From the NCBI GenBank assembly GCA_937899865.1, contig CALBRH010000062.1, positions 1 through 43,026 of the forward strand: 43,026 nucleotides of DNA, in the 5' to 3' direction. Source of the stretch: an uncultured euryarchaeote (lineage in GTDB: Archaea > Thermoplasmatota > Poseidoniia > Poseidoniales > Poseidoniaceae). The position numbers and the translations under genes were made by a program. The notes below the pieces were generated by a model that was not told the DNA's origin, did no database searches, and was given only the letters and a program-made list of their open reading frames with translations. Below, one piece after another: positions 6,646 to 9,934 of the stretch (position 1 is the first letter of the stretch; the number at the start of each line of letters is the position of its first letter).

Positions 6646-7560
6646 ATGGTAGAAGCATTCGTTGCGTTTGTAAGGTTTGAAGAAAAATTGCTATTGTTGC
6701 GTAGAAACAAATCCGATGATGATTTCCCTGCTCTATGGGATGGTGTATGGGGTATTGCTGATACCCAAGAAGAAGTTCTAGCAAGAGTTGCTGAGGCAAC
6801 CAGCATCCCTGTAGAGAATCTACATTTCCATTCCACTGGTCCAGAACGCGGTATAGATATGGGTCGTTCTTTGGTCGATGTAATGCCGATCTTGGTAGTT
6901 TCATCTTCTGATGAAGTAACTCCAACTGGCAGATACAGCGAGCATGAGTGGGTAGACCCTGGTGCAATACAGAATTACAACTGTATCTTTTCCAATATCG
7001 ATATGGATAATGCTGATTCACTGTTTAGAGAAATGTATGGTTCAGTTGGCTCCTTCTTGTACATCGTAAAAACTGCAATTGGCTCAGAGCAAAGAGTCGC
7101 AGATGAGATGCATGCAAGACTACACGGTAGCGGTTCTCTAACAGCACTTCAAGGTGATATAATGTCCATTTTACATCCAACAGGGATGCGTGGCTATGTA
7201 TTTGTTGAATCAAGTGCTATATATCACGTTGAAAAGTTGATTGGGCGCTCTGGTGGTAGAGATCCAACCTCTCGCAGAGGTATTAATCAAACTCCATTGA
7301 AGAATGCTAAGACCGTATTGCCAGGTGAAGCACCTTTAGCTGACATCTTGCCATACCTTGAACCAAAGGCTGTAACTTCTGGTATTGAAGTAGGATGTAT
7401 TGTTGAAATTATCACAGGCGCTTTCAAGGGTGAAAAAGCACGTATTTTGAATGTTTCAGACTCTAAGGAAGAAGTTAGTATGGAATTGTATGACCAACCA
7501 ATACCAATGACTGTTAACATGCGTGGAGACCACGTCAGAGTCATTGAAAGAGTTGAATAA
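6646..7560 (+). CDS. spt5: Transcription elongation factor Spt5/NusG with an N-terminal degenerate Nudix-fold domain
   Basis: NGN domain from ~7054 (YIVKTAIGSEQRVA...GYVFVE) and KOW (VGCIVEIITGAFKGEKARI); N-terminal ~135 aa reads like a Nudix fold (LLLLRR...FPALWDGVWG). GGGTGA SD before ATG 6646. Confidence 0.9.
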   Translation: MVEAFVAFVRFEEKLLLLRRNKSDDDFPALWDGVWGIADTQEEVLARVAEATSIPVENLHFHSTGPERGIDMGRSLVDVMPILVVSSSDEVTPTGRYSEHEWVDPGAIQNYNCIFSNIDMDNADSLFREMYGSVGSFLYIVKTAIGSEQRVADEMHARLHGSGSLTALQGDIMSILHPTGMRGYVFVESSAIYHVEKLIGRSGGRDPTSRRGINQTPLKNAKTVLPGEAPLADILPYLEPKAVTSGIEVGCIVEIITGAFKGEKARILNVSDSKEEVSMELYDQPIPMTVNMRGDHVRVIERVE

Positions 7561-7640
7561 TCAATTCTTCTAATGAAATCCTAAATTTATAATATGGCGT
7601 AGATGGAAATATTATATTCCGATTTGATTCGGCTAATGTT

Positions 7641-8078
7641 ATGGATATAAAAGAAATCTTGACGCCTAAGAATATGCTAATTACCCTGGGGACTATTGTC
7701 ATAATAATGTCGCTATGGGGCATGACTCATGGAGATGAGTGGGCAGAAATTGGGTGGGGGGAAGATAATGTTCTCGCTCACGATGAGGCATATGAGGAAA
7801 TGTGGGCATTACATCTAATGCCGCTCGGGGTAATGGCAATTGTTACAGCATTGGTTGTAACTGGAAAGGAGCTAGCCAAGGTTGCAATGTTTGCTCCAAT
7901 TGTTATAGTAAATATGTTGGTAGGAATGTTTATTTTGACCAGGGATAATGGTTATGGGGGCACCCCTACGGGAGTTTCTGCAGCATTAGCAGGCCTTATG
8001 ATGCTTGCAACAATACTGACTTGTGTATCGGGTTTCATGCACAAAGACGGAGAAAGTGAAACGGAGGCGGTAGAATGA
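7641..8078 (+). CDS. Small integral membrane protein (about 4 TM), unknown function
   Basis: 145 aa, several hydrophobic segments; stop overlaps the next ATG (ATGA). Confidence 0.75.
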   Translation: MDIKEILTPKNMLITLGTIVIIMSLWGMTHGDEWAEIGWGEDNVLAHDEAYEEMWALHLMPLGVMAIVTALVVTGKELAKVAMFAPIVIVNMLVGMFILTRDNGYGGTPTGVSAALAGLMMLATILTCVSGFMHKDGESETEAVE

Positions 8079-8440
8079 TTGATACAATTCTAAACCCTCA
8101 AGTTTGGTTGGTTTTAGTCGTACTTGGCCATACCCTGCCTGGAGTTATAATACCAACAAATTGGGCAAATGACACAGCAAAAATGGTAGCGGGCTGGATG
8201 CTTTTAACTTCGGTTACCCTGATTTATGCTGCAGTTTGTTTAGACGGTGAGGAACAGGCTCGACTAGCGCTTGTAATAGCTGGACCAGTTTGGATTTGGT
8301 TTGTAGTGTGTATATCTCAAGGGTTCGAGTATACCTTGGGTAAGGAACCTCTGACAATGAATTGGAAACAAAATGCTCCGCCACTAGTACTTTGGGGCAT
8401 GGTTGCATTAACAGGGCTGTTGGAGTCTGGTTGGATTTAA
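8075..8440 (+). CDS. Small integral membrane protein, paralog of 8461..8832
   Basis: Shares ILNPxxWL..GHTL, QARLAxxIAGPVW and PPLVLWG with the next ORF. Confidence 0.8.
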   Translation: MIDTILNPQVWLVLVVLGHTLPGVIIPTNWANDTAKMVAGWMLLTSVTLIYAAVCLDGEEQARLALVIAGPVWIWFVVCISQGFEYTLGKEPLTMNWKQNAPPLVLWGMVALTGLLESGWI

Positions 8441-8460
8441 GAATTAGAAAGGTGATCTAG

Positions 8461-8832
8461 ATGGAACAATTAAAGAAAATACTGAACCCTAAAATTTGGC
8501 TCCTTATTGTTGCTTTTGGACATACTCTGGCCACTATTCTTCCTGTATTGAGCGATAAAGGAATCAACATGGAGGAAATAGAAGTTGAATACGCCGTTTG
8601 GCGAATTGTATCAATGATTCTCCCAATGATATTCATTGCATTCATTTTTACCAAGGAAATTCAGGCAAGATTGGCAACTGCCATTGCTGGACCGGTCTGG
8701 GTTATGTTTGTGGTATGGATATTAATGGAAGGATTTGAAACACTACTCATTCCACCATTGGTTCTGTGGGGTCTTCTCGCATTAAGTGGATTACTGCATG
8801 GCAATTTTCAAAATTTAATGTCTAACGAATAA
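8461..8832 (+). CDS. Small integral membrane protein, paralog of 8075..8440
   Basis: Same three motifs; AGGTGA SD-like sequence upstream of the ATG. Confidence 0.8.
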   Translation: MEQLKKILNPKIWLLIVAFGHTLATILPVLSDKGINMEEIEVEYAVWRIVSMILPMIFIAFIFTKEIQARLATAIAGPVWVMFVVWILMEGFETLLIPPLVLWGLLALSGLLHGNFQNLMSNE

Positions 8833-8890
8833 CCTTGTATTCCATTCAAATGGTTAAGTCTATGATTTTGGCACTGCATAATTGACGCGG

Positions 8891-8901
8891 CGCGATTATA
8901 T
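8891..8901 (+). promoter_or_regulatory. Putative BRE/TATA element upstream of rpl11
   Basis: CGCGATTATAT, identical to 6306-6316, ending 53 nt before ATG 8954. Confidence 0.45.
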
Positions 8902-8953
8902 AGGGGAGTTTTCTCGGCAAGATGCCCACGTCTGTGAGCATGGAGTTGAAATA

Positions 8954-9235
8954 ATGCCGAAACCTTGGACCTCCCATCTAATTAGAGATGCTCTTGGAGT
9001 TAAGAAGTGTAACGGTAGTATGGAGGCCGCGACCGAAGACCTACCTTTGGAAAAGGCAATTGAGGTTGCCAAGAAGAAGCATGGCGAAGGTCATCTGACC
9101 GGTGCGGACTTGAAAGCACAAACACGCGAAGTTATCGGAACTTGTGTGTCAATGCGTGTCAAGATCGACGGTCATTGGGCGAATGAGGCGCTCGCAATAA
9201 TCAGTAAAGGAGATTGGGACGAGCGCTTTGTTTGA
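8954..9235 (+). CDS. rpl11: 50S ribosomal protein uL11, C-terminal rRNA-binding domain only (93 aa)
   Basis: PWTSHLIRDALGVKK matches archaeal L11 PPTSALIKKELGIEK; EVIGTCVSM conserved; directly before rpl1; GGAG SD before ATG 8954. Confidence 0.88.
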   Translation: MPKPWTSHLIRDALGVKKCNGSMEAATEDLPLEKAIEVAKKKHGEGHLTGADLKAQTREVIGTCVSMRVKIDGHWANEALAIISKGDWDERFV

Positions 9236-9246
9236 ATTCACGGACC

Positions 9247-9275
9247 GCAGGAGAGGATAAAACCTCGTGGACTGC
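9247..9275 (+). promoter_or_regulatory. Putative uL1-binding autoregulatory RNA element
   Basis: GCAG/CTGC stem, GA, GAGG/CCTC stem with ATAAAA loop, GTGGA asymmetric loop; abuts the rpl1 SD (GGGGTGAGGT 9277-9286). Confidence 0.55.
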
Positions 9276-9289
9276 AGGGGTGAGGTAAT

Positions 9290-9934
9290 ATGGAAGAGAA
9301 AATTAACCAAGCAATAAAGGACGCACTGGAGAACGCTCCAGAGAGAAAGTTCGTCGAATCTGTTGACATTTCGTTTACCATAAAGGATGTCGATTTGAAG
9401 AACCCAAACAACCGTATCAAGGAGGAAGTGAGACTTCCTTCAGGTCGTGGTAAAGAATTGAAAATTGCAATGTTCGCTGCCGGAGAAGCCGCAACCAAGG
9501 CTAAGGATGCAGGAATAGACGTAATAACTCCTCAAGAAATTGAAGAATTAGGCGGTAAGAAAGGGAAAGCAAAGAAAATTGCAAACTCCTATGATTTCTT
9601 CCTTTCAGAAGTCCCTCACATGGGTCTAATTGGACGATATCTTGGTGTTGTTTTAGGTCCAAGAGGCAAAATGCCAAGACCAGTTCCTCCTACATTGGAT
9701 CCTTCAGTTATCGCTGCAGGTCTAAAATCAACAGTTATTGTCAAGTCAGGCGACAAGATGACTTTCCATGCAGCAATTGGTACTGCAAAGCAAAGCCAAG
9801 AAGAATTATCTGCTAATGCAATGGAAATTTTCAATCGTGTGATTTCTAAGTTGGAGCGTGGAGTTGGTAACATCCGTTCACTATACATCAAGACCTCAAT
9901 GGGTCCTGCTCAAAGAATCGAGGTGATCAATTGA
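9290..9934 (+). CDS. rpl1: 50S ribosomal protein uL1
   Basis: RKFVESVDI, LGPRGKMP, KTSMGP motifs; strong SD. Confidence 0.98.
   Translation: MEEKINQAIKDALENAPERKFVESVDISFTIKDVDLKNPNNRIKEEVRLPSGRGKELKIAMFAAGEAATKAKDAGIDVITPQEIEELGGKKGKAKKIANSYDFFLSEVPHMGLIGRYLGVVLGPRGKMPRPVPPTLDPSVIAAGLKSTVIVKSGDKMTFHAAIGTAKQSQEELSANAMEIFNRVISKLERGVGNIRSLYIKTSMGPAQRIEVIN

Follow-up and report, generated by a model that had tools for sequence, protein, structure and literature searches.

The window analysed here (the whole stretch of 43,026 nt on the forward strand of contig CALBRH010000062.1, assembly GCA_937899865.1) comes from an archaeon of the order Poseidoniales (Marine Group II) and encodes a ribosomal protein uL11 of 93 amino acids, in which the C-terminal rRNA-binding domain is present and the entire N-terminal domain (NTD) is missing. 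Very probably this is a functional C-domain-only uL11, produced by a single deletion of the NTD in the ancestor of Marine Group II/Poseidoniales and kept in its short form by purifying selection. Within the GTPase-associated centre, the uL11 N-domain counts as universal and mobile; its partners are EF-G/EF-2, EF-Tu/EF1A, release factors and L12/P1, and it makes up one half of the thiopeptide pocket, which lies between the L11 N-domain and A1067/A1095. What is new here is a universal ribosomal protein that has lost a domain naturally and throughout a lineage; a literature search, with most subscription journals outside its range, returned no published description of an NTD-less uL11.

Table 1. 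Features of the uL11 locus, in coordinates of the window
Feature	Position	Strand	Remarks
Spt5/NusG (NGN + KOW), 307 aa	6637..7560	+	upstream neighbour in the conserved cluster
Insertion that carries three small membrane-protein genes	about 7561..8888	+	separates the Spt5 stop from the L11 promoter
First membrane-protein gene, 145 aa	7641..8078	+	predicted
Second membrane-protein gene, 121 aa	8075..8440	+	predicted
Third membrane-protein gene, 123 aa	8461..8832	+	predicted
BRE/TATA-like promoter element GCGCGATTATATAGGGG	8890..8906	+	~55 nt 5' of the start codon
GGAG, Shine-Dalgarno-like	8942..8945	+	8 nt 5' of the ATG
uL11 gene, C-terminal rRNA-binding domain alone	8954..9235	+	93 aa plus stop
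uL1 gene	9290..9934	+	downstream neighbour; PF00687, E 4e-47
P0 (uL10) stalk-base gene, 337 aa	9931..10944	+	
P1 (aL12) stalk protein gene, 102 aa	10962..11270	+	

The open-reading frame that matches L11 spans 8882-9235, with a conserved ATG at 8954-8956 and the stop at 9233-9235, and its product reads MPKPWTSHL...DERFV. A preliminary description had assigned the interval 8833-9235 to this gene; the short uL11 is indeed there, but the gene begins at 8954 and 8833-8953 is a spacer that holds the promoter. The sole Pfam match of the protein is PF00298, the L11 RNA-binding domain (score 38 bits, cut-off 21.4, covering profile positions 2-68 of 69), whilst the same Pfam search returned no match to PF03946, the L11 N-terminal domain. 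Searched against the whole genome, PF00298 hits one locus (38.8 bits), the uL11 of the window, which is therefore single copy. A profile built from an alignment of 20 short uL11 orthologues matched, from the first residues of the short protein, residues 71-159 of 164 in Pyrococcus furiosus L11P and residues 72-158 of 161 in Methanocaldococcus jannaschii L11, which is the C-domain from hinge to end, and the short uL11 aligned to full-length L11 of the sister order from the 'GTPPAASL...' hinge onward. By these alignments the short uL11 begins exactly at the inter-domain hinge, and the Pfam and profile results both agree with the earlier claim that L11 homology starts at MPKPWTSHL, in the linker between the two domains, with the whole NTD missing.

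An AlphaFold2 model computed on the same alignment (mean pLDDT 85, pTM 0.76) gave as its best Foldseek matches the L11 C-domains of M. jannaschii (5d8h_C) and Haloarcula marismortui (4v9f_I), both with a TM-score of 0.80 by query, and it covered the engineered bacterial fragments 1hc8_B and 1y39_B over their whole length (TM by target 0.78-0.80). Compared with canonical archaeal uL11, which carries both PF03946 and PF00298 (P. furiosus 4V6U chain BH, M. jannaschii 5COL/5D8H, H. marismortui 1S72/4V9F chain I), the short protein occupies the orthologous place within the Spt5-L11-L1-P0-P1 cluster and agrees in C-domain sequence (E 5e-20 to 1e-15), in predicted fold and in having the archaeal C-terminal helix. 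It differs in lacking the first ~70 residues, that is the whole NTD with its Pro-rich loop, and in carrying an order-specific KCNGS in place of the usual GSG loop, together with GTCVSMR. Xing and Draper (1996) reportedly observed that L11 C-terminal fragments bind RNA and do not support thiostrepton binding. In domain content the short uL11 is the same as such laboratory C-terminal fragments of bacterial L11, studied with the 58-nt GTPase-centre RNA (1HC8, 1Y39 and the 'L11-C76' of Xing & Draper 1996, the last as cited in PMC1802607). Those fragments were engineered, however, whereas the Poseidoniales protein is a natural, selected product of a whole order.

The missing domain was sought throughout the genome assembly of the window, which comprises 65 contigs and is 91% complete. 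PF03946 found nothing at E ≤ 10 in this assembly and matched in all 14 control genomes. A clade-matched NTD profile HMM, trained on the N-domains encoded by seven full-length L11 genes from sister families within the same class, was run without filters over 39,765 six-frame segments of at least 25 aa and gave a best E of 1.5, with alignments that were noise. Neither a second full-length rpl11 nor a stand-alone NTD, which the preliminary description had named as points to check, was thus detected with PF03946, PF00298 or the clade-matched HMM. In same-genus genomes that lack the membrane-gene insertion discussed below, the spacer between Spt5 and L11 measures 100-102 nt, and the frames 5' of the uL11 ATG vary in length and content between relatives. 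At ~100 nt this spacer is too small for a 65-aa domain, so that 8833-8953 cannot hide an NTD, and with the upstream frames not conserved either, a frameshift is ruled out as the cause of the short uL11, just as had been claimed from the window.

These searches also bear on the idea that an NTD is encoded elsewhere, separately or fused to another protein, has diverged too far for profiles to recognise and joins the ribosome in trans. Sequence searches reach poorly for a fast-evolving domain of ~65 aa and could miss one that had become unrecognisable, and the genome is not fully complete; against this, the clade-matched HMM returned only noise, and PF03946 is over its cut-off in none of the order's genomes sampled yet reaches 60-98 bits elsewhere in the phylum. 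As the NTD belongs to the most conserved ribosomal segments, such strong divergence within a single order would be striking in its own right. We consider a hidden NTD very unlikely and favour its outright deletion.

The loss extends across the order. PF03946 was over the cut-off in none of ~77 Poseidoniales genomes, single-contig genomes among them: 0/49 in family f1 and 0/26 in family f3 of the class sample, which makes 0/75 for the two main families, and 0/2 in family f2. Sister families of the same class carried it in 37/43 (f4) and 2/2 (f5) genomes, 39/45 together. Across the phylum, among genomes at least 85% complete, the domain was found in 0/20 genomes of f1 and 0/11 of f3, versus 116/120 in all remaining families. 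Weak PF03946 matches in relatives (E 0.05-0.8, 10-15 bits) were scattered on unrelated open-reading frames and were taken as noise. PF00298 was over the cut-off in 37 of 41 relatives, and the start at the hinge is kept in all orthologues, as MPKPWTS in f1 and f2 and as MSARNETPH in f3. Similarly, a protein search recovered 118 metagenome protein clusters, ~93 aa long, in which PF00298 is the sole domain; most are unnamed, those with names read 'hypothetical protein' (several from Candidatus Poseidoniales archaeon) or 'large subunit ribosomal protein L11', and of the few that bear a taxon name some are Poseidoniales. The survey of L11 across the order and its sister groups that had been proposed at the outset thus places the short form order-wide, with the NTD mostly kept in the sister groups. 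As all short uL11 are taken to descend from one ancestral event, the many genomes speak for a state that is real and retained, and are not independent events. A separate gap was seen in family f10 (genus g35) of the same phylum, in which PF03946 was unmatched in 3 of 8 genomes; this could be incompleteness or a second loss.

The same evidence weighs on whether the short gene is an artefact of assembly or annotation, or a decaying pseudogene, limited to this contig. The gene does adjoin an insertion, but the interval 8752-9400, which takes in the tail of the third membrane gene, the spacer, L11 and the beginning of L1, is collinear in the assemblies of at least six other species at 85-93%, and the assembly of one close relative aligns over 8074-9400. 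No misassembly is indicated at the junction, and with the same gene and the same start in 37/41 relatives, a dN/dS of about 0.06 (see below) and 118 metagenome clusters of equal length, an artefact is effectively refuted.

The gene order of the locus is conserved. SecE-Spt5-L11-L1-P0-P1 is found in 8 of 9 related loci, the exception being a rearranged locus in family f3 (L042), and in the window the order is SecE-Spt5-(insertion)-L11-L1-P0-P1, with uL11 between Spt5/NusG and uL1. Homology to two same-genus loci (L044, L045) breaks off near 7534, at the end of Spt5, to pick up again at 8889, at the promoter; the boundaries of the insertion thus lie outside the uL11 promoter and gene. None of the three membrane proteins has a Pfam match, and the second and third are paralogues sharing 46% identity. 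The family to which they belong is present in 31 of 72 genus genomes, at several genomic places, a patchy distribution that suggests a mobile or fast-turnover gene set, and it adjoins L11 only in the closest kin of the window (G143, G010, G012, G015, G021, G024 and G013). In other members of the genus (G009, G016) and in families f2 and f3 the short L11 follows directly upon Spt5. The preliminary description had proposed that truncation and insertion might be linked; this does not hold, since the trio is missing at L044 and L045, in f2 (L043) and in f3 (L037-L042), all of which have the short uL11, and where present it stands upstream of the conserved L11 promoter. With the truncation order-wide and the trio confined to a sub-clade of one genus, the truncation long predates the insertion, which is a later, unrelated event.

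Several signals indicate that the short gene is in use. Pairwise dN/dS (Nei-Gojobori, NG86), computed for 18 orthologues from the genus, reaches at most 0.13, with the median at 0.063, and by this measure the short uL11 is under strong purifying selection. Across the three families 15 alignment columns are invariant, including N20 G21, T49 G50 and G62 T63 C64 V65 M67 R68. The GCGCGATTATATAGGGG block is conserved among relatives in the genus, whether or not they have the insertion, and occurs in a diverged form in the other two families, and GGAG before the ATG is likewise conserved in genus relatives of both kinds; from their sequence and position we infer a promoter role for the former and a Shine-Dalgarno role for the latter. 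The earlier claim of an intact C-terminal domain with its own Shine-Dalgarno and promoter-like element is supported. Judged by sequence conservation and the predicted fold, the 93-aa uL11 is a functional C-domain-only gene product. A further (G)TCGGC motif stands in the leader after the TATA block (8907-8953 in the window, and its equivalents in L037-L045), conserved in the three families of the order, and could be a start point of transcription or a site of regulation.

Compensating changes had been envisaged in the neighbouring stalk base and in 23S rRNA, and only the latter yielded a candidate. Through its rRNA-binding and insertion domains P0 is colinear with P0 of the sister families, differing ahead of the acidic tail by single-residue indels only; by this alignment it contains no inserted stretch able to take the place of the NTD, and this candidate was rejected. 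P1 is of ordinary length. No 23S rRNA is assembled in the genome of the window, so the rRNA comparison was made on relatives, counting class genomes in which the GTPase-centre stretch is assembled (for example L049 from G044 and L050 from G039), with E. coli numbering presumed from the 1051-1108 sequence. The binding site in the rRNA is preserved in these relatives, and A1067 and A1095 are retained. Position 1061 is G in 66/66 and position 1083 is G in 65/66 order genomes (G300 is the sole member with U1083), and both are U in 11/11 sister-family genomes. G1061 is the archaeal consensus in Rfam RF02540, which makes the sister group the deviant and removes this position as a compensating change; a U-A pair at 1091:1100 was rejected also, being common to sister families with full-length L11. 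U1083 is a strongly conserved archaeal consensus base in RF02540, within the 1083-1085 triloop. On these sequences U1083G alone, within the 23S GTPase centre, arose on the same branch as the loss of the NTD; sharing one branch makes the two coincident in time, which falls short of a demonstrated connection.

Alternatively, the vacated site might have been filled, and the role of the N-domain taken over, by a lineage-specific protein without homology to it or by an extension on one of the neighbouring components. Two order-specific features would fit, U1083G and a NUDIX-like extension of ~135 aa on Spt5, neither of them shown to be connected with the loss, but the colinear P0 and the ordinary P1 offer no such extension and no candidate protein was identified. 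We regard a substitute as unlikely, and the simple loss of the N-domain remains our preferred reading.

How a ribosome of this kind would work can be sketched from the fold and the conserved motifs. The 93-aa uL11 most likely still binds H43/H44 of 23S rRNA in the assembled ribosome, where it would stabilise the fold of the GTPase-associated centre, whilst the P0-(P1)n stalk and the sarcin-ricin loop would take charge of factor recruitment and GTPase activation, with the mobile L11 N-domain switch missing from the GTPase cycle. Poseidoniales probably translate without the half of uL11 that touches translation factors and forms the thiopeptide pocket. The minimal GTPase-associated centre and the possible thiopeptide insensitivity put forward in the preliminary description stand as predictions. 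The L11 NTD touches the L12 C-terminal domain as well as translational GTPases and is pinned to H43/44 by thiostrepton (PMC3505967). Translation without the N-domain, and even without the whole protein, is possible in L11-deficient ribosomes of E. coli and yeast: E. coli 70S lacking L11 have been used for reconstitution (PMC3505967), and yeast without both uL11 genes is viable with very slow growth (PMC2175356). Both are mutants made in the laboratory, impaired in growth or activity, and have lost the C-domain too; in Poseidoniales, unlike these mutants, the N-domain alone is lost, and in abundant, free-living organisms.

Thiostrepton-resistance mutations lie in the L11 NTD or in the RNA (PMC1802607), which makes weak thiopeptide binding a reasonable prediction, and by this analogy ribosomes of the order are likely to bind thiostrepton-class thiopeptides weakly. 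The broader proposition, that a whole order lives without the uL11 N-domain switch, with ribosomes that are hence insensitive by nature to thiopeptides of the thiostrepton class and to further agents working through the NTD, possibly accompanied by co-adaptation (U1083G, the KCNGS loop) or by a non-homologous substitute, is one that we hold to be evenly balanced. Intrinsic insensitivity to thiopeptides would then be predicted in an archaeal group that ranks among the commonest in surface seawater, and an order living without the domain would be a natural experiment on how far it is needed, open to direct tests of factor-docking models. The loss has a practical side as well: PF03946 is invalid as a single-copy marker for Poseidoniales, completeness estimates that count it come out slightly low since it is absent order-wide, and the short uL11 is often labelled 'hypothetical' by automatic annotation.

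The surroundings of uL11 show further peculiarities. Spt5 carries an N-terminal extension of ~135 aa with a faint resemblance to NUDIX (E 0.015, below the cut-off), which aligns in every sampled locus of the order; Spt5 of the sister families (175-217 aa) is without it and aligns only to residues 136-305. In the sister families (L046-L048, L069-L073) full-length L11 comes directly after Spt5, with L1/P0/P1 not found within 5 kb and P0 on other contigs, so that the Spt5-L11 and L1-P0-P1 blocks are apart there and joined in Poseidoniales. Further downstream, more than half of the window (11964-36977) is taken up by a single open-reading frame of 8,337 aa, which contains numerous Ig-like and propeller repeats and has a membrane anchor at its C-terminus.
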